A DNA stretch of 64,000 bases, from assembly GCA_043799675.1 (NCBI GenBank), contig JAZDNN010000024.1, positions 32,412 to 96,411 on the forward strand. The letters are read 5' to 3'. Position numbers and translations under genes: made by a program. Under the pieces are notes generated by a model. The model searched no databases. It was not told where the DNA came from and saw only the letters and a program-made list of their open reading frames with translations. The stretch comes from Candidatus Aenigmatarchaeota archaeon (lineage in GTDB: Archaea; Aenigmatarchaeota; Aenigmatarchaeia; Aenigmatarchaeales; JACQIB01). Shown piece after piece: positions 3,021 to 54,583 of this stretch. Position 1 is the first letter of the stretch. Each line of letters starts with the position of its first letter.

Positions 3021-4835
3021 ATGAATGACAAGCAAAAACCGGGGAATGATGGGATGAGCGACGGAGAAAAACCGTTCTTTCCGCTGCTTGCGTCAGGCAC
3101 GAAAGGCAAGTTTGAGACGCCGATGAAGGCCGACCTCAGCAACCAGGACAAGCCGGGAATAATCACAAGTGCCGGCAACAGTCCCTGGTCGAGCAGGCTG
3201 TTGTGGGCCGGCGAAACACTGCCGCCAAGGAGGGAGATCGGAGGCAACCAGTTCATAGCCCTGGACTACACAGGGCCGCCAGGCGAGGGAAGCGGGATCT
3301 ACTACAGCCTCATGTTCCAGATGCTCAAGTGGAGATGGAACATCGTGAAGGTGGACGAGAGCATAGAGGTCAGCCCGACCCACCGCGAATACTACGAAAG
3401 GACCATAGCCACGAAGGGGGCGCTGGAAGGGACCATCAAGGAGGGATTGCGCAGCGCGGCCCAGGCGGTGGCGGATTACGAACTCATACTGCACGACATC
3501 CGAAAATACAAGGAGATAATGGACTACTTCGAGGCGGTCGCAAAAGCCAGGCAGACCAAGGACAAGGAGGAAAGGAAGAAGAAGGTCGCTTCGGCGGAGC
3601 ATGTGCTGAAAGCAATGTACGCGGATCAGGTGGACATCCACACCGGAAACAGCAGCATCGTCCAGATGGCGCAGACGCGGTGGCCGACCATCCTTTCGGA
3701 CTTCATGCGGCTGACCGAAGACATGGACACCATGGACAGGATAAAAGGGGACCTGAAAATCAGCGGCGCGGAAGCTTTGGTGCTCAAGACCAAGAACGAC
3801 CTGTTCAGGGAGTGGCTGAAAATATTCGGCCGGGCCGTCCAGGAAAGGTACGAAAGGCTGACCGGGATAACGATCGCAAGGAAGCGGTGCGTCGAGGAGT
3901 ACAGGGAATGGATCAAGCCTTACGTTACCAGGTTCAAGGCGATGAAGACCGGGTCGAACCGGGAGGCGTTCAAGTCGTTCATCGACATAACCGGCCAGGC
4001 GCTGTACAGCAACGAGATAAAGCTGTGGGCGTGGCAGCCGTACAGGGCGGTCGAGATACACAAGGCGCCGATGGTAAAATCGGGCGACTTCACTGTCGAA
4101 CCCGCGGACCCGTGGACGGTTGAGCACTACATAAAATCGCAGGTCACCGGTCTCGCCCACAAGGATTATTATCCGTGGCTGCTGCAGGAGGAATCCCCGA
4201 CGTTCAAGAAGGCGTCGGATTATCCGTGGCTCGCCGGATTCAGCACCGAAAAGAAGGTGACCATGGCCGACAACATGATAGCCAGGATACGGAACAACTG
4301 GAAGAAGGGGGAGATACCGTGCACGGACCCCAACGACAACTACTACCTCTTCATCACCATGGACATCGACCGGGCGGGGAGCCGGCTGCCCGTAGGAGAG
4401 CTTGAGGACATATTGTTCGACATGCGCATGCACGTCATCTCGCACAACGCGCTGCTGATAAAGATGGTGGAGCTCGACTGCCGGGAAAAGGAGATTGACA
4501 GGTACATAGAGGAAATACTGGGCATCAAGAAGGACGACAAGAGCATAGAAGAGCTCGTCAAGAAGGAGTTCCCGGACCTGTTCGGGGTACAAAAACCGAA
4601 GGAACCGACTCAGTTCGAACTGTTCAAGAAGGAATGGAGCGACACCATAAACGGTTTCATGGCGCCGTTCAAGAGCGCGAACAAGACGCTCACGAAATCA
4701 CGCCCGTGGCTGGTCAAGACCGGCCCGTACGAGACCGACTGGGACGAAAGGATAACCAAGCACTACCTCATCCCGTCCGGGCAGGTGTTCGGCATGGTCA
4801 CCGGATACCTTATGTCGAAGATGGGCATCGAATAA
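3021..4835 (+). CDS. Hypothetical protein (604 aa, helical)
   Basis: Long ORF with genome-typical codon usage; no recognised motif. Confidence 0.8.
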   Translation: MNDKQKPGNDGMSDGEKPFFPLLASGTKGKFETPMKADLSNQDKPGIITSAGNSPWSSRLLWAGETLPPRREIGGNQFIALDYTGPPGEGSGIYYSLMFQMLKWRWNIVKVDESIEVSPTHREYYERTIATKGALEGTIKEGLRSAAQAVADYELILHDIRKYKEIMDYFEAVAKARQTKDKEERKKKVASAEHVLKAMYADQVDIHTGNSSIVQMAQTRWPTILSDFMRLTEDMDTMDRIKGDLKISGAEALVLKTKNDLFREWLKIFGRAVQERYERLTGITIARKRCVEEYREWIKPYVTRFKAMKTGSNREAFKSFIDITGQALYSNEIKLWAWQPYRAVEIHKAPMVKSGDFTVEPADPWTVEHYIKSQVTGLAHKDYYPWLLQEESPTFKKASDYPWLAGFSTEKKVTMADNMIARIRNNWKKGEIPCTDPNDNYYLFITMDIDRAGSRLPVGELEDILFDMRMHVISHNALLIKMVELDCREKEIDRYIEEILGIKKDDKSIEELVKKEFPDLFGVQKPKEPTQFELFKKEWSDTINGFMAPFKSANKTLTKSRPWLVKTGPYETDWDERITKHYLIPSGQVFGMVTGYLMSKMGIE

Positions 4836-4933
4836 CCTTTTGCTCGCTGCTTACCGCAGCTCCAAAAGGTTAATCAAAACATTTACTGAGCCTGTTTCAT
4901 AAAAGCTAAATACCAGACAGACGAACCCATGTC

Positions 4934-6565
4934 ATGGCTTATGTTTTGGGCGTGAGCACGGGAACCTTCGGGATAGCCCGGTCCGCCGACCCGGAGACCA
5001 GGCACGAATACATCGGAATCCCGAAGAAGGCGCTCTGGAGCATCACCAAGGGGGTGAACTTCGCCCAGGTGGACATGGAGAGCGTGTCCGAGTTCATCGA
5101 GCCGGACCTTGAGAAGCAGATAGCCGCGCTTGAGAGGATAGGCATCGACGTCGGCATACACGGGGAGGCGAAGGAATACACGAGCGTGATGCCGTACCTG
5201 GACAGCGCCCTGTTCGAAGAGTGGCACCGGAGCCATGACAGGCTGATAAAGTCCCTCACCGGCGCCGGAAAGGACATCCATGCGAAATACTTTTTGCTTC
5301 ACAGCTCGGCGAGCACCAGCTGGCAGACGCTCTGGCACGAGTTCCAGCCTACTAATCTGGCCGACATCTGGGGGCGCAGGCTGGACAAGTTCCTTGAGGA
5401 CAATCCGGACGTGCAGGAATGGGCGATATCCTCGGAAAGGGTGATGGAGGTCGCCGGCCACCGGACAACCATCATGCCGAAAATTGAGGACCAGAAGAAG
5501 GAAGCGTTCGAGAACTACGTGGAAAGATGGAAACAAGGGCACGAGGGGAAGGAGCTCAGCTCCGATGAGCTTTCAAAAATGAAGAAGGAAGCGGAAGAGG
5601 CGACGGTGGAACAGTTCAAGCGGATACTGGAAAAATTTGTCACCACCTCCGAGCAGACCTACGGAAGCGAAAGGGTGGCCTACTATTGCATCGGGTACTG
5701 GATGCAGGAAGGAAGGAGATGCCCGGTACAGCTGAGGGAAATCTGGAAGAGCATCTGCGGAAGGGGAAATGTATCAGATCATAAATGGGCGGAGGCGGCG
5801 GGAGGGAACAACTGGGTCCCGGCGGTGACTTGCGCTTATACCTGGGGTCACTTCAACCCGGACAAGTGCCCGTCATGGCCGAGCGACCTGAAGAGGCCGG
5901 AAGACCCGAAGCCCATCCTCGAAAAATACAACCTGCTGTTCGTACTTGAAACCCCGGTCGCGGGGGCGGGCGAGGAGGAGCTGCTGAGGCTTGCCAAGCC
6001 CACTCACATCTACGCACTGGTCAAGAATATGGGCTCGCCGAATGTCGGGGTGGCGTGGGACTCTGAACACCAGCTCTGCGGGGGGATAGACCCGATGAAG
6101 GAGGCGGACAGCCTGCCCGACGGGGCGGGAAAGATGGTAAGGGTGATACACGTCGGGTATCCGGCGGTCCTTGGGCCGGCGCACGTCCCGATACCGCTGG
6201 GGAGCGAGGCGCAGGAATACATCTACAGGATGCTGTGGAAGCTCCGCAAGAAGGGTTTCAAGGACGGGTGGATAATATTCGAACGGGGCGCCGGGCAGGA
6301 ACCTGTCAAAGAAAGCGTTATCTCCCTGAGAAAGATAATCGAGTTCCTGGACAAGGAAATCGTTCCTGAAAAGCTGCCTGACGAATTCTACGGGATGGAG
6401 AAGGGCGGGGTGAGGCTGACCAGGCAGGAAGTGGCCATAAAGGACCACGCGATGGACCCGCTGAAAGGGCTGCTGGTGATACCGGAGGAGGAATACGGGT
6501 TCCTTTCAACCGCAGCGGCGGCCAAGGGCAAACTTGAGGAATGGAAGAAGGCCGAGCTGAAGTGA
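4934..6565 (+). CDS. Xylose-isomerase/AP-endonuclease-like TIM-barrel protein with helical insertion
   Basis: GIHG, LLHSS, VLET, AWDSEH, VIHVG, H.P and IFERG motifs typical of metal-dependent TIM barrels. Confidence 0.65.
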   Translation: MAYVLGVSTGTFGIARSADPETRHEYIGIPKKALWSITKGVNFAQVDMESVSEFIEPDLEKQIAALERIGIDVGIHGEAKEYTSVMPYLDSALFEEWHRSHDRLIKSLTGAGKDIHAKYFLLHSSASTSWQTLWHEFQPTNLADIWGRRLDKFLEDNPDVQEWAISSERVMEVAGHRTTIMPKIEDQKKEAFENYVERWKQGHEGKELSSDELSKMKKEAEEATVEQFKRILEKFVTTSEQTYGSERVAYYCIGYWMQEGRRCPVQLREIWKSICGRGNVSDHKWAEAAGGNNWVPAVTCAYTWGHFNPDKCPSWPSDLKRPEDPKPILEKYNLLFVLETPVAGAGEEELLRLAKPTHIYALVKNMGSPNVGVAWDSEHQLCGGIDPMKEADSLPDGAGKMVRVIHVGYPAVLGPAHVPIPLGSEAQEYIYRMLWKLRKKGFKDGWIIFERGAGQEPVKESVISLRKIIEFLDKEIVPEKLPDEFYGMEKGGVRLTRQEVAIKDHAMDPLKGLLVIPEEEYGFLSTAAAAKGKLEEWKKAELK

Positions 6566-22927: not shown

Positions 22928-23359
22928 ATGCCGAAGTTCAGGTTCATTCCCGAGATAGCGATAGCTGATGTAGCCTTCGAAGCGGAAGGTAAGGACATCA
23001 ATGAGCTGTTTGTGAACTGCGCCCTTGCAACCGAGGAATCCATGGTCAACACAAAGAAGGTGAAGCCGAAGGTCAGCAAGACCATAAAGCTGGAAGCGGA
23101 TGCGCTGGACAGACTGATGATTGACTGGCTGAACGAGGTGATTTACTACAAGGACGCGGAGGGGCTGCTGTTTTGTGAATTCATCGTCAAGGTATTGCAA
23201 AAGGGAAAGAACTGGACGCTTGAAGCCACGGCAAAGGGCGAAAAGAGGGACCCGAAGAAGCACGAGCTCAGGGCGGATGTGAAGGCGGCGACTTGGCACC
23301 TTTTTGAACTGAAGCAGGAAAAGGGCAAGTGGAAAGCGAGGATTGTAGAGGATATCTGA
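22928..23359 (+). CDS. Archease (RtcB cofactor)
   Basis: ADVAFEAEG..ELF, WLNEVIY, VKAATWH, C-terminal DI. Confidence 0.93.
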   Translation: MPKFRFIPEIAIADVAFEAEGKDINELFVNCALATEESMVNTKKVKPKVSKTIKLEADALDRLMIDWLNEVIYYKDAEGLLFCEFIVKVLQKGKNWTLEATAKGEKRDPKKHELRADVKAATWHLFELKQEKGKWKARIVEDI

Positions 23360-24266: not shown

Positions 24267-25133
24267 TTAGCTGCGCTCTCCGGAAACCGTTCCGGTAACT
24301 GAAAACCCGTTACTGCCGCTATCCAAGTATGTCATCGTTACAGCGAGGGTATATGGATCTCCAACGTGGCCATTCACTCCCATGGTATTTGTGCCTGTCA
24401 GCCATACCCTTTCCAGAGGGAATAAGTTCATGGGCACGTTCATGGATGGTATTTGTAAACCGTTGACGCTTACAGACGTAATGCTGATGGTATCGCCAAC
24501 CCTGTCCTCCACCCACAATTTTAACGTACCATTTGCAGCGTAATCGACATCCAGCACACCTATGTTCGTGAAGCCGCTGATTGTCTTGGGAGTGCAGGTC
24601 TGTGATTCCTGCGGTTTGCTTGTCGTTGTCCCGCAAGAATTCGTGTCAATGCATGTTCGCATCCGCGTTCCGCCGGCACCGCACGCGGACCATGCATCGC
24701 ATTGCCAGTTAGGAGTACATGTACATGGTTGTGTTTCCAAAGGCCTGTCGCTAAACAGATTGCATCTGTTTGCATCCGTGCATACCCTGCTCTGATTTCC
24801 CGAATTACTGCAATTGGTCCATGCACTGCACTGCCAGTCAGGCACGCAGGGTGGCGTGCAGAACTGGGTTTCAACAGGCTTGTTATAATTCACGCTGCAG
24901 GAATTCGCATCTATGCATGTCCTTGTCTGCGTTCCTGAAGCGGAGCATGCATTCCACGCCCCGCACTGCCAATCAGGCGTGCATACTGGGGGCATCAGAG
25001 GCCCACTTGGCTTAATCAGGGATTGCACAATATACAACGATGCAAGCGCAACGATTATTACAGCCAGAACCAAGATAATGACGTTTTTCTTTTCGGATTT
25101 AGGCACACCTATTTTCTTTTCTGACTTAGGCAC
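24267..25133 (-). CDS. Membrane-anchored protein with three Cys/Trp (TSP1-like) repeats
   Basis: Same architecture as neighbour; duplicated upstream region. Confidence 0.82.
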   Translation of the reverse strand: MPKSEKKIGVPKSEKKNVIILVLAVIIVALASLYIVQSLIKPSGPLMPPVCTPDWQCGAWNACSASGTQTRTCIDANSCSVNYNKPVETQFCTPPCVPDWQCSAWTNCSNSGNQSRVCTDANRCNLFSDRPLETQPCTCTPNWQCDAWSACGAGGTRMRTCIDTNSCGTTTSKPQESQTCTPKTISGFTNIGVLDVDYAANGTLKLWVEDRVGDTISITSVSVNGLQIPSMNVPMNLFPLERVWLTGTNTMGVNGHVGDPYTLAVTMTYLDSGSNGFSVTGTVSGERS

Positions 25134-25216: not shown

Positions 25217-26801
25217 ATGGAGCAGGAACCTGAAAAGCAGACAGGCAGTCTGCCGAAGGAAATCAAGAAAATCAGCGAGGTCGTCTGGGAACTGCCCACC
25301 AGCTACAAGAAAGGCATGCGCGTGCCGGCAAGAATATATGCGACCAAGAAGCTGCTCGATGCGATGGACGCGGGAGTGTTCGAGCAGGTCACCAACGTCG
25401 CGACCCTGCCGGGAATCGTCAAGCATGCGTTCTGTATGCCGGATGGGCACTGGGGTATGGGTCAAGTCGCGGCTTGATTCACTCAAATATGGGTTCCCAA
25501 TCGGCGGCGTGGCTGCATTCGACCCGAAGGTCGGCGTGATCAGCCCGGGCGGCATCGGGTTCGACATCAACTGCGGCATGAGGTTCGTCACTACCAACCT
25601 TACTGTCAAGGACGTCAAACCCAAGCTGAAAGAACTGGTGGATATCCTGTTCAGGACGGTTCCCGCGGGCGTGGGCGGGGAAGGGTTTGTAAAATTAAGC
25701 CGCAGCCAATTCGACGAAATAATGGTCCAAGGGGCCAATTGGGTCATCGAGCACGGCTACGGTTGGAAAGAGGACACGGAAAGAATAGAGGAGTACGGCT
25801 GCATCAAAGGTGCTGATCCGTCAAAGGTCAGCGACAAGGCAAGGACCAGAGGCATCACGCAGATGGGGACGCTCGGCTCAGGGAACCATTACCTGGAAAT
25901 CCAGACTGCCGAGAAAATTTTCCTTCCCGAAGTCGCAGAGGCATTCGGCGTGAACGAACAGGGGCAGATAGGGGTGATGGTGCACTGCGGCTCGAGGGGG
26001 TTCGGCCACCAAATCGGAACGGATTATCTCAGGATATTCGACATGGCAATGAAGAAGTACAACATCACGGTGCCTGACAGGGAGCTTGCCTGTGCGCCTT
26101 TTGCGAGCCAGGAAGGACAGGATTATTATCACGCGATGGCCTGCGCGGCAAACATGGCTTTTGCCAACAGGCAGGTGATTTTGCACAGGATACGCGAGGC
26201 TTTTGCAAAGGTGTTCAGGAAATCCCCCGAAGACATGGAAATGCACCTGGTGTACGATGTCGCGCACAACGTGGCCAAGGTGGAGAAACACCTGGTCGAC
26301 GGTCATGAAAAGGAACTGGTGATGCACCGGAAGGGGAGCACGCGCTGCTTCGGTCCGGGTAGGCCGGAGATTCCTGAAGCTTACCGCAAGGTCGGCCAGC
26401 CGGTGATTGTGGGCGGCAGCATGGAAACGGGCAGCTTTTTGTGCGTGGGCACGGACAAGGCTCTGACAGAAACATGGGGAAGCACCATGCACGGCGCGGG
26501 CAGAACCATGAGCAGGACTTCAGCGAGGAACCAGGGCTCGGGCTTGGCGTTGCAGAAGAAGATGGCCAAGGAAGGGATACTGGTGGAAGCCACGAGCATG
26601 AGCGGGCTTGCAGAGGAAGCGGGCTTTGCCTACAAGGACCTGAACGAAGTGGTCGAGACCATGGAAATCGCGGGCGTGAGCAGGAAGGTCGTTCTGCTGA
26701 GGCCTTTGGGTAATATTAAAGGCACCGCCCGGGCCTCATACAGCCTTTTAGCTTTCCCCATACTTGTCATGGTCTTGGCCTTGATTTCGTCCCTTATCTG
26801 A
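25217..26801 (+). CDS. rtcB: RtcB RNA-splicing ligase, join(25217..25456,25488..26801)
   Basis: MPDGHWG|YGFPIGG, GFDINCG, GNHYLE, HCGSRG, HN, HRKG, HGAGR, EEAG.AYK, NIKG; a single frame is restored by removing 31 nt. Confidence 0.95.
25457..25487 (+). other. 31-nt BHB intron in rtcB mRNA
   Basis: Central helix UGGG(25451-54)/CUCA(25482-85), bulges GU^A and AA^U, 10-bp intron stem closing a CGCG loop; cuts give TGG GGT TAT GGG (WGYG). Confidence 0.88.
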
Positions 26802-27865
26802 ACGATAAGCGGTTCGACCTGTTTCCACCTCGTGATGTTCTTGCCGATTATTTCGAGAATCAATTCCTTTTTGGCCGTTTTCTCGGGATGCCTCAACGGC
26901 AGCAATTCGAGCATCCGACGGACATCGGCCTTCCTGAAGATTTCTAAGGCGAAATAATCCTTGCTGTATCTTATACTGACCCCATGAGTGTCTCTGCCGT
27001 CCCCGCGCCTGAAAATCCTGTATAGAATTGGATTAAAGCCCTGTTCCCTTAGTTGCCGTTTTATCCTACCAAGCAAGGTTTTATTTTCGGTGCCTATCCG
27101 CATACAACACTGCAAATTTTCCCTGATTTTCTTGACCAGAAGCGACCCTTCCGCATCGAAGTAGCCGGCCAGGAACGACAGGAAAACATTCCGTTCGGAT
27201 TCGACCAACTCTGAAATCAATCGTTTCCTGTTTTCCAGCAAGAGGAAGTCGAAGCTGTTGTCGAGGTCTGCGGATGTCGTCCACATGTAATTTCCAAAAG
27301 TTCTGTTCTTCGCAGGATATGTCCTTACCTTCGCATATCCTTTGAACAGGCTCTCGAAGACATCCAGGAATCCTTCATGAGTCGTGTTGGTTATGGCCCG
27401 AATGGTATGCTTCGATCTTCTGAAGGCTGTCACATCACCCTCCACGAAACCAACCATGTAAGCCTTTTCTTCATCCTTTCCATCAAAACTTTGCCGTTCA
27501 TGTTTCCTGTTTGTCAGCAGGATAGCCTCATCGTTTCCACGCACCCGAAAGCCGTTTTCTTCCAGCACCTTATGCAACGTGCCTTTGGAAGAACCAAATT
27601 TCTTGGCCAGCTTTTTCAACGATATTTTCTCCGTGTCATAAAGTCTCAGAATTTCCGTCACAGGCAGGTGTTTCCTGTGAGACAACGAATGTGCCTGACT
27701 GAGATTCCTTATCGGTATGTCAAGTTTGATGAACCGTTTTCTTACGGCCGACCACGATATATCGTCTCCGAGCTTAACACTCAATATCGCCGCCACTTCT
27801 TTGAACGTCTTACCGGACGAATAGAGACTCTCGGCTTCCTTCAGGAGTTCGCTGTTCAGCTTCAT
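26630..27865 (-). CDS. Free-standing LAGLIDADG homing-endonuclease-like protein with N-terminal HTH repeats
   Basis: AYMVGFVEGD and FLAGYFDAEGS motifs; LPLRHPEK. Confidence 0.88.
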   Translation of the reverse strand: MKLNSELLKEAESLYSSGKTFKEVAAILSVKLGDDISWSAVRKRFIKLDIPIRNLSQAHSLSHRKHLPVTEILRLYDTEKISLKKLAKKFGSSKGTLHKVLEENGFRVRGNDEAILLTNRKHERQSFDGKDEEKAYMVGFVEGDVTAFRRSKHTIRAITNTTHEGFLDVFESLFKGYAKVRTYPAKNRTFGNYMWTTSADLDNSFDFLLLENRKRLISELVESERNVFLSFLAGYFDAEGSLLVKKIRENLQCCMRIGTENKTLLGRIKRQLREQGFNPILYRIFRRGDGRDTHGVSIRYSKDYFALEIFRKADVRRMLELLPLRHPEKTAKKELILEIIGKNITRWKQVEPLIVQIRDEIKAKTMTSMGKAKRLYEARAVPLILPKGLSRTTFLLTPAISMVSTTSFRSL

Positions 27866-29046: not shown

Positions 29047-29079
29047 TTCAGGCTTCCCGCCAAAAGGCAATGAGGAAGT
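29047..29079 (-). other. TR intron 3 (33 nt, BHB)
   Basis: CAGG-AA^A-CUUCC...GGAAG-CCUG-AA^U. Confidence 0.85.
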
Positions 29080-53398: not shown

Positions 53399-54583
53399 GT
53401 GAAAAGAAGAAGCAAGATTATACTGGCGGCCGTGGCGGCGTCCCTTGCCTTCTGCGTTATCGCGTTCAGTGACGAGATCAGATATTTGACCAACAGCATC
53501 AATGCCAATGCCATCTGTTTTCCGGACTCGTCAAAGGACAAGATTTCATTCATCATCGCCGAGAACGGGACCTATGACAACGAAAAGGTCAGCCTGCAAA
53601 TCTCAAAGTATTTCGATTCGGTCAAAAAGGACCTGAGCATCGACAATGCCGGCATAAAGAAATTCCCGGGGAAAACAGTGGACGAACTGGACAAATTCGT
53701 TGACGACCTTTATTTGAACGATGATGTCGGTTACATTATTCTGCTCGGGGACAATCTGCCGGTCGCCAACGTTACCGAGAACGATGCCACCAACCAGGCT
53801 GCCATCTATGAAAAGCTTTCATGCGTAAACGGGGACTGCCTGGTCAGAAAGGAACGGGGAGACTCTCCGACCGTAACGGGACAAGAGGCATACTATCGGT
53901 GCCATGATGTGGCAATTTCGTACATACTGCCGCCAATTCCGTATTCGGACAGCGAGAAAATCGACTTTGTCCTGAAAATACTGGAGACTTATACGGACTA
54001 CCACAACAACTTTGCAACTCATATCGGCAAATACCAGAAATCGATGCTTCACATCGCGGACCCGTACTTCGTGGGAGATTGTCTAAAATCATCAATAGAC
54101 AACCCGATATTAAGATATGACCTGCCTGTAATTACCATCTCGGGCACAGAGCGCGAAAAGGTATTTGACGAACTTAAGAACAAATACCTTATCCTGCATT
54201 ACGGCATACACGGTTCAACTTGGATACTGCAGCTTACCAACGGTTGTTCCAACGAAAGCATCCAGCCTCAAACTCTGAGGTTGAGCGAGTATTCGAACTT
54301 TACAAAGGAATACGGAACACCGGCGCTTTTCGTTGCCCCCGGCGCATGCGAAGCCATGACAATTAGAGATGACCTCGACCCCTGGGAGTTATCCAAATAT
54401 CCTGAAAGAAGGCACTGCTGCTGGCCTCAGATATTCATGGAGTCCGGAGCCTGGGCATACTATTATATGCCACATGGAAGGGGGAATACCTTTTTGTACG
54501 AAAAGACAATAGGCCTGGCCATCAGGAAAAGCAATGTGGAACAGTTTTTCATCTTCGGAGACATACTGGCGCATATGAGGTAA
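53399..54583 (+). CDS. Secreted peptidase C25-like protein (tandem paralog)
   Basis: YIILLGD, IHG, GAC; identical FGDILAHMR end. Confidence 0.6.
   Translation: MKRRSKIILAAVAASLAFCVIAFSDEIRYLTNSINANAICFPDSSKDKISFIIAENGTYDNEKVSLQISKYFDSVKKDLSIDNAGIKKFPGKTVDELDKFVDDLYLNDDVGYIILLGDNLPVANVTENDATNQAAIYEKLSCVNGDCLVRKERGDSPTVTGQEAYYRCHDVAISYILPPIPYSDSEKIDFVLKILETYTDYHNNFATHIGKYQKSMLHIADPYFVGDCLKSSIDNPILRYDLPVITISGTEREKVFDELKNKYLILHYGIHGSTWILQLTNGCSNESIQPQTLRLSEYSNFTKEYGTPALFVAPGACEAMTIRDDLDPWELSKYPERRHCCWPQIFMESGAWAYYYMPHGRGNTFLYEKTIGLAIRKSNVEQFFIFGDILAHMR

Follow-up and report, generated by a model that had tools for sequence, protein, structure and literature searches.

A probable bulge-helix-bulge intron in the rtcB coding sequence of an Aenigmatarchaeota archaeon

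The DNA considered here, referred to as the window, is a stretch of 64,000 nucleotides (nt) from Candidatus Aenigmatarchaeota archaeon (GenBank assembly GCA_043799675.1, contig JAZDNN010000024.1). Its forward strand carries a gene for the RNA ligase RtcB that is split by a 31-nt insert with the predicted geometry of an archaeal bulge-helix-bulge (BHB) intron. Shown in Table 1 are the positions of the gene, its two putative exons, the structural elements of the insert, and a neighboring archease gene. When the frame is followed from the ATG at position 25217, the protein reads ...CMPDGHWG, continues with six unrelated codons (MGQVAA), and then encounters the TGA at 25475-25477, which leaves an open reading frame (ORF) of 86 amino acids (aa). 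The remainder of RtcB, beginning with YGFPIGG, resumes at 25488 in the +1 frame and extends as far as 26801. According to the ORF list, this second frame is already open from 25338. An exact look-up in the protein collection found neither the 487-aa nor the 86-aa ORF product.

The two halves of the protein fit together without a seam. An alignment with RtcB from Pyrococcus horikoshii (1uc2) places the end of exon 1 at Gly 69 and the start of exon 2 at Tyr 70, and excision of positions 25457-25487 leaves the H-W-G-Y-G-F-P-I-G-G motif intact with no residues lost and none gained. Moving both cuts one base to the left yields an identical protein. At the predicted spliced joint CACUGGGGU is followed directly by UAUGGGUUC, and the product would be 31 nt shorter than the genomic DNA. 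The Pfam RtcB profile runs on continuously over the joint (1-27, then 25-426). Exon 2 scores 524 bits against RtcB and is 77% identical to its counterpart in an intron-less relative, and the codon-usage scores are positive in both exons.

Table 1 Features of the rtcB locus and of the predicted fold of the insert (window positions).
Feature	Position	Strand	Basis or remark
Archease, RtcB cofactor family	22961..23356 (G000:C16:55372-55767)	+	Pfam Archease PF01951, E 2.7e-39; 1.9 kb upstream of rtcB, same strand
rtcB	25217-26801	+	Interrupted after codon 80
rtcB exon 1, 80 codons, C-terminus ...MPDGHWG	25217..25456	+	ORF list; Pfam RtcB profile 1-27; aligns with 1uc2 residues 5-69
Putative BHB-type mini-intron, 31 nt, in-frame TGA 25475-25477	25457..25487	+	Sequence, ORF list, relatives, environmental contigs
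rtcB exon 2, 437 codons + stop	25488..26801	+	Pfam RtcB profile 25-426, E 4.2e-157; aligns with 1uc2 residues 70-477
Outer exon-exon helix, 5' strand (25438-25442, 25444-25447, 25449-25450)	25438..25450	+	Free and constrained folds
Central helix H, 5' strand UGGG (exon 1: Trp codon and first G of Gly codon)	25451..25454	+	Pairs with 25482-25485: U-A, G-C, G-U, G-C
5' bulge GU^A, inferred cut 25456/25457	25455..25457	+	Constrained fold and bulge-cut rule
Intron hairpin h', 10 bp (25458-25467 with 25472-25481), loop CGCG 25468-25471	25458..25481	+	Minimum-energy, centroid and constrained folds
Central helix H, 3' strand CUCA (intron)	25482..25485	+	Co-varies with exon strand in relatives
3' bulge AA^U (25486-25488), inferred cut 25487/25488; 7-nt loop in predicted fold	25486..25492	+	Constrained fold
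Outer exon-exon helix, 3' strand (25493-25494, 25496-25499, 25501-25505)	25493..25505	+	Free and constrained folds

The insert is predicted to fold as a relaxed BHB motif with a canonical 5' side and a loose 3' side. The 5' bulge consists of 3 nt between the central helix H and the 10-bp stem, and in both the free and the constrained folds an 11-bp exon-exon helix closes the motif. The two bulges are on opposite strands, and on each strand the bulge comes 3' of the helix, GUA after UGGG and AAU after CUCA. When the central helix is imposed as a constraint, the calculated energy of the 75-nt region is -26.9 kcal/mol versus -27.4 kcal/mol for the unconstrained minimum, a gap of 0.5 kcal/mol. The arrangement departs from the strict hBHBh' form, in which both bulges are 3 nt long and each is flanked by helices. 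The splicing endonuclease EndA cuts after the second base of the bulge, and application of this rule gives a frame-restoring joint both in this rtcB and in those of its relatives.

Much of this had been described in an initial annotation of the window, namely a PDxHxGYGFPIG motif split by a 31-nt insert with an in-frame TGA and an unspliced product of 86 aa, a UGGG/CUCA helix with GU^A and AA^U bulges and a 10-bp intron stem, canonical cuts that remove exactly 25457-25487 and restore W-G-Y-G, and a relaxed outer helix. The first of these is confirmed by the sequence and the ORF list, the helix, bulges, and stem are all present in the constrained fold, the proposed cuts join residues 69 and 70 of the reference, and the outer helix is indeed relaxed, with no pair directly after the 3' bulge and a predicted loop of 7 nt.

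The alignment of rtcB genes from related archaea that the annotation had called for reveals inserts at the same site. Three sets of genomes were surveyed. The first was composed of the 42 genomes in the same order. An rtcB match is present in 36, and seven of these carry an insert at the same motif (the present genome, G000, together with G005, G006, G016, G021, G023, and G024); the rest read through. The second set comprised the best 80 rtcB loci from contigs representing one genome per species. Fifteen of them have a 30-33-nt insert at the same place, and their record titles name Woesearchaeota, Nanoarchaeota, and Aenigmatarchaeota, with some doubtful names. The third was a phylum sample of 251 genomes with 237 rtcB matches, at least 20 of which bear an insert, a count that is a lower bound given that 157 match rows were unlisted. 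From this sample 17 regions were picked that had a stop inside the match, a match start at residues 48-74, or, in G033, a split match with missing residues. An insert at the motif was found in 15 of the 17, two of which belong to the same order, thereby giving 13 further loci. As a side observation, the rtcB of G033 (L132, G033:C35) lacks reference residues 141-174 and changes frame at the joint; it is possibly a damaged gene, or one with a larger unrecognized insertion or deletion.

In total, 34 distinct insert-bearing loci were identified, one per genome, all of them within a single 10-nt stretch of rtcB and with covarying stems. The inserts are 18, 21, or 28-33 nt long, and their lengths leave a remainder of 0, 1, or 2 upon division by three in 19, 8, and 7 loci, respectively. 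A stop occurs in the unspliced reading of 32 of the 34, including nearly all in-frame inserts. In 17 loci (class C) the insertion directly follows the His codon, in two it splits the Trp codon, in 12 it comes one base into the Tyr codon, and in two it separates Tyr from Gly. The window alone has it between Gly and Tyr. The insert sequences are unrelated between groups, with at least six sequence-unrelated groups, and the geometry is constant. Introns of apparent BHB type recur at five positions, and at a second motif described below, in several DPANN lineages.

Pairing was evaluated with a script anchored on the protein joint, which counted four pairs in H and four in h' for each locus. Over the 34 loci, 248 of 272 pairs (91%) are standard in register, with the anchoring chosen among one to six protein-restoring cuts per locus and thus leaning slightly towards structure. 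Displacing the 3' partner by 1-3 nt lowers the number of standard pairs to 102-152 of 272. For the central helix, all four pairs are standard in 15 loci, three in 15, and two in four. Each pair position is occupied by three to seven pair types. The strands of the helix co-vary, as in UGGG/CUCA, GCGG/CCGC, AAGG/CCUU, AGGG/CCUU, and GGGG/CCCU, with the exon strand following the codons and the intron strand following the exon. As judged from these sequences, the structure appears to be kept by compensatory change while the sequence drifts. A MAFFT alignment of 11 class-A introns was dropped for the pair counts, as the 5' side of two rows was misplaced.

The fold by itself does not exceed chance. 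What does exceed it is the register that restores the protein motif: for the first 20 insert loci, the best-pairing of 21 registers restores the motif in 19, whereas 3.3 would be expected.

The distribution of the inserts is patchy. At the site in question, the 86 intron-less rtcB loci show a zero gap. On an RtcB tree of 109 rows, close sisters with and without the intron include G006/G002, L058/L053, L047/L050, and L104/L093; the branches leading to G006, which has two introns, and G002, which has none, are only 0.02 and 0.05 long. Precise loss is the sole viable loss at such conserved sites. No RNA run was listed for the stretch, and six DNA runs share only 5-7% of its sampled words. Environmental DNA contributes contigs from relatives rather than from the source sample. 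A 159-nt contig from run X3 spans the whole insert with seven differences and no gaps, and a 395-nt contig from run X1, derived from a more distant relative, has an insert there with small indels. In run X4, on the other hand, a relative's contig skips exactly 31 nt (25456-25486, the same-protein cut), and the shorter of its two flanks at the joint measures 72 nt. The identification of the insert as a BHB intron, put forward in the initial annotation, is strongly backed both by the comparative data and by a relative's DNA that lacks exactly these 31 nt.

The tree also contains bacteria-titled records (Kryptonia, Scalindua, and others; L037-L042, L059, L086, L090, L095, L099) whose rtcB genes are 66-70% identical to this archaeal one. 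They nest among the archaeal rows, and none has the intron. This suggests either inter-domain transfer of rtcB or mislabeled bins.

A second site for putative BHB introns lies approximately 26 codons downstream, at the motif G-I-G-F-D-I-N-C-G, with inserts of 24-35 nt. Those of G006 (L016 635-669, 35 nt) and G005 (L034 1470-1501, 32 nt) are canonical, and their removal restores both motif and frame exactly. In-frame inserts with stops occur at the second motif in G008 (L027), G204 (L120), and G211 (L124). Two introns are found in one rtcB gene in G005, G006, G204, and G211. In addition, the rtcB matches of G003 and G004 (L008, L018) restart at residues 95-97, within frames that stay open for 882-1010 aa. 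The phylum sample contains no fewer than 11 other genomes with such restarts (for example, G191, G243, G213, G244, G147, G249, G153, G232, G085, G114, and G090). In G090 (L129) the restart is at residue 74, with ∼1.4 kb inserted near residues 72-74. These restarts look like intein-sized insertions at or near the catalytic cysteine, beside the second intron site.

The genome, at 749 kb in 45 contigs and 83% complete, encodes the enzymes that splicing of such an intron would require. In addition to the archease listed in Table 1, there are two adjacent EndA paralogs of 189 and 170 aa on contig C10 (51.4-52.5 kb). The larger is closest to catalytic α chains, and the smaller to the EndA-like (β) half of the Methanopyrus kandleri β-α construct, a pairing that points to a two-subunit EndA. 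A second intact rtcB, which would have weakened the proposal made in the initial annotation, was looked for and not found in this 83%-complete genome, nor was any other convincing ligase for these RNA ends. A borderline PF09414 match (27.7 bits, inside a 572-aa frame) possibly belongs to a DNA ligase-type enzyme, and a PF13563 match considered as an alternative ligase belongs to a 2H-phosphoesterase-type protein. Neither type is known to ligate tRNA exons.

The tRNA genes also appear to be heavily interrupted. Rfam models recover 16 above threshold, and 15 of these span 85-161 nt, lengths that indicate introns; ARAGORN reports 10. A rough scan revealed compact BHB hairpins of 20-29 nt inside the long genes, and many tRNA genes are probably too disrupted for detection. 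Elsewhere in the window, a canonical BHB-like hit of 33 nt with a 4-bp helix and a 6-bp stem is located at 29047-29079 on the reverse strand. Between archease and rtcB lies a reverse-strand ORF of 288 aa (24267-25133) with approximately four Cys-rich repeats of the form C..W.C..W..C and no Pfam match. The 3' tail of rtcB (26718-26801) shares sequence with the 3' end of an ORF of 411 aa that converges on it from the reverse strand (26630-27865). In this ORF a LAGLIDADG_3 domain (E 3.3e-09) is accompanied by a weak helix-turn-helix match.

On the basis of these observations, the 31 nt at 25457-25487 are, with high probability, an archaeal BHB intron in the coding sequence of rtcB, such that EndA and pre-existing RtcB would be needed to make new RtcB. 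The following sequence of events can be envisioned. The gene would be transcribed with the intron, and the unspliced RNA would, as read from the sequence, yield the 86-aa fragment alone. Exon UGGG is predicted to pair with intron CUCA, flanked by the 10-bp hairpin on one side and the exon-exon helix on the other, an arrangement that the covariation supports. The two-subunit EndA would then make two cuts, one behind position 25456 in the 5' bulge and one behind 25487 in the 3' loop, following which pre-existing RtcB, together with archease, would join the exons and probably circularize the intron. The joined mRNA would encode full-length RtcB with an intact H-W-G-Y-G-F-P-I-G-G motif, and daughter cells would inherit the ligase required. 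The genome encodes a two-subunit EndA and an archease, its tRNA genes are rich in introns, and only one rtcB was found, so that RtcB most likely depends for its synthesis on EndA and on RtcB already present.

Several points weigh against this assignment. We infer the splicing event, the exact cut sites, the identity of the acting ligase, and the effect on expression level. The 3' cut falls in a predicted 7-nt loop with no pair directly after it (h=0) rather than in a canonical 3-nt bulge, and h=0 likewise applies to the 3' site in 13 of the first 20 insert-bearing loci. In the free ensemble, the pair probabilities of the central helix are low (0.07-0.13 each). The fold alone is weak proof, because 16 of 200 shuffled sequences fold as well as the native one (z = -1.43) and strict BHB-like patterns occur 740 times in the whole genome (0.75 Mb). 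Among the relatives, the group formed by G016, G021, and G024 has only two of the four central-helix pairs standard, and in most class C introns the outer helix position is occupied by a G.A. The 34 loci are kin rather than independent trials, and their counts overstate the number of independent events. A second rtcB could sit in the unassembled part of the genome. Finally, the conserved RtcB end, ...NIKG, is reached at 26723, and the usual stop is replaced by a 25-aa, mostly hydrophobic tail; in all seven relatives checked, the stop comes right after ...KG and the tail is absent. Some decay of this rtcB may have taken place. A search for a second intron whose removal would bring back the stop after ...NIKG revealed no convincing BHB.

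Is rtcB specially targeted? Three gene families from the same order served as controls. None of the 39 full matches to RpoB domain 6 in the 42 genomes is interrupted, and the same holds for the 23 full matches to TGT. Among the matches listed for class-I aminoacyl-tRNA synthetases, stops occur in two of 150, neither with extra length. Set against the frequency in rtcB, these counts speak for a gene specificity beyond chance, on what is, with three families and one order, a thin comparison. Of separate note is a full-length class-I synthetase match in G007 (G007:C48:2845-4659) that contains one in-frame TAA and has no extra length relative to its orthologs.

Within the present genome, motif scans were noisy. 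When the strict BHB motif was required to lie in a long-ORF context, the canonical cut yielded 58 candidates and shifted cuts 53-56, which represents no signal, and the loose motif gave noise (4879 versus 4711-4947). With a codon-usage filter, the strict motif gave 36 versus 17-21. Fourteen of these 36 were inspected by their flanks and look like junctions of neighboring genes (for example, a Met-led reading a few codons past the joint on C2). A candidate at 54077 is inside one uninterrupted 394-aa ORF. These noisy genome-wide scans yielded no convincing second mRNA intron. A pre-formed hairpin was also considered as the cause of the hotspot. In intron-less rtcB mRNAs, the site is in a predicted hairpin loop in 32 of 86 loci (37%) versus 327 of 2064 other positions (16%), and this enrichment is modest, prediction-based, and too weak to sustain the idea.

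It could be argued that the intron is a selected regulatory device, in which RtcB output is tied to splicing capacity by positive autoregulation or by a feed-forward match to endonuclease activity. We regard this as somewhat unlikely. It draws on the interruption of rtcB in 7 of 36 genomes versus 0 of 39, 0 of 23, and approximately 2 of 150 listed control matches, on the five positions within 10 nt plus a second motif, which point to repeated independent gain or retention, on tRNA genes that are almost all interrupted, and on the proximity of the archease. The cbf5 intron, moreover, was proposed by its authors to be a negative regulator, as stated in a portion of that report (PMC2738675). The controls are limited to three families, however, and very close sisters lack the intron, which marks it as dispensable. 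A positive loop acting on an essential enzyme is not obviously homeostatic, in that low ligase would lead to even less ligase. Furthermore, clustering at the most conserved motifs, beside an intein site, is the pattern of a selfish element. The initial annotation had claimed both that the ligase is needed for its own expression and that this constitutes a positive autoregulatory loop. The first claim follows logically from a single rtcB, with no other convincing ligase, in an 83%-complete genome; the second, that of a selected loop, is inference only.

The facts cited for the regulatory loop are equally accounted for by a neutral or selfish intron that has settled at a conserved site. As for why rtcB is affected, our best guess invokes mobile and largely selfish introns that persist where conservation is very high, in a gene that is itself very conserved and often exchanged, much like its inteins, and we do not favor the intron as a purpose-built regulator. 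A bolder proposal, which we consider rather doubtful, is that BHB introns favor rtcB as a target, perhaps through the action of RtcB itself, in what would be a gene-specific and recurrent self-referential splicing circuit across DPANN. In one version, RtcB would act by preference on its own message and ligate free introns into the EndA-nicked mRNA, to be copied back into DNA thereafter; reverse transcriptases are present in these genomes. In the other, selection would keep the intron such that ligase synthesis tracks endonuclease activity where nearly all tRNAs need splicing.

A different explanation, namely that the 31 nt represent an insertion scar or the remnant of a small mobile element in a dead rtcB, with the ligase supplied from elsewhere, is very unlikely. 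DPANN archaea do depend on hosts, the genome is 83% complete, the unspliced ORF ends after 86 aa, and the normal stop has given way to the 25-aa tail. Nevertheless, the scores of both exons are those of an intact RtcB (exon 2 reaches 524 bits and shares 77% identity with the intron-less relative), codon-usage scores are positive in each, no other rtcB was found in the genome, and its tRNA genes need a ligase. Random scars, in addition, would not give 34 genomes with inserts of BHB geometry whose removal restores the motif.

Translational frameshifting, or a bypass of the T4 gene 60 type, would cross the insert with no RNA splicing at all. The exon-2 frame is open from 25338 and a +1 shift upstream of the TGA would allow reading to continue, a stable hairpin lies in the gap, and 19 of the 34 inserts are multiples of three. 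A frameshift would leave approximately 10 foreign residues inside the H-W-G-Y-G motif, however, and given stops in 32 of 34 inserts it could not be a general solution. Bypass of the gene 60 type requires matching take-off and landing codons, whereas here GGU precedes the gap and AAA precedes the resume point. Neither process has any use for a 4-bp helix that covaries between exon and insert, and we judge both to be extremely improbable. An assembly or sequencing artefact, conceivable in a 45-contig metagenome-assembled genome, has a practically negligible chance of being the explanation, given the gapless X3 contig from an independent run, the X1 contig of a more distant relative that also has an insert there, and the inserts at the same place in 33 other genomes from many studies.

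If the BHB intron assignment is correct, the interrupted gene encodes the last enzyme of the very pathway that splices it, and its expression depends on both EndA and its own prior presence. Published cases of tRNA-type introns in protein-coding genes are very rare, and here 34 genomes have such introns at one motif. Two questions are opened to test: how BHB introns spread and choose their targets, and whether the rtcB intron couples ligase supply to splicing load. There is also a practical consequence for annotation. Gene callers will give truncated, N-terminally wrong, or "frameshifted" rtcB genes in many DPANN genomes, an error that may cause the tRNA-splicing pathway to be wrongly scored as incomplete.

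A full-text literature search, with subscription journals outside its coverage, turned up no paper describing an intron in rtcB. A term search of a 2026 preprint on Asgard tRNA introns found no mention of RtcB or mRNA. A 2023 review lists, in the relevant passages, cbf5 and HVO_1309 as the archaeal mRNAs that the endonuclease splices and anticipates further cases (PMC10485636). As described in sections of another report, (αβ)2 and ε2 EndAs cut non-canonical introns, and a relaxed BHB is acceptable to EndAs of broad specificity (PMC5829648).

Close structural counterparts of the rtcB insert are the mini-introns of archaeal tRNAs, including those of multi-intron tRNAs at non-canonical positions, which have the same 4-bp helix, 3-nt bulges, and hairpin, the same size range, and the same enzymes. 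The rtcB insert differs in that its host is an mRNA, the exon side of its helix is constrained by codons, and its outer helix is formed from coding sequence. Inteins in rtcB resemble it as selfish insertions in a catalytic motif of the same gene. An intein, however, is an in-frame, stop-free protein-splicing domain that is encoded by the element and removed at the protein level, whereas the insert, at 31 nt, is not a multiple of three, contains an in-frame TGA, and has no coding capacity.

In XBP1/HAC1 splicing, an mRNA is cut at stem-loops by the non-spliceosomal, stress-regulated IRE1, and removal of a short intron changes the frame. The proposal for rtcB shares with it a protein-coding mRNA, rejoining by RtcB, and a short frame-changing intron; IRE1 rather than EndA makes the cuts, the process is stress-regulated, and the target encodes a transcription factor rather than the ligase. 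RtcB ligates XBP1 mRNA in animals, as noted in part of one account (PMC8718801).

Among archaeal mRNAs, that of HVO_1309 from Haloferax volcanii is cut at a BHB by EndA, as is proposed for rtcB, and the spliced form is its main product according to the corresponding passage of the review (PMC10485636). It differs in gene and lineage, in having a homodimeric EndA, and in having no self-dependence. Another precedent is the cbf5 pre-mRNA intron of Crenarchaeota, which is likewise short, lies in a protein-coding gene, has to be excised before the protein can be made, adopts a relaxed BHB, goes with a two-subunit (αβ)2 EndA, and has a patchy history of gain and loss, as set out in portions of two sources (PMC2738675, PMC10485636). 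For cbf5, endonuclease cleavage and exon ligation were demonstrated experimentally, as a part of the original report describes, whereas for rtcB splicing is predicted from the sequence (PMC2738675). The cbf5 gene of the present genome (TruB_N) is one open frame of 344 aa with no stops. The rtcB insert is the same kind of element as the cbf5 intron of Desulfurococcales and Sulfolobales and not the same intron. It occurs in DPANN rather than in Crenarchaeota, it occupies several positions within 10 nt plus a second site in the same gene, and the product of its host gene is the ligase of the pathway, which would be needed for its own synthesis.

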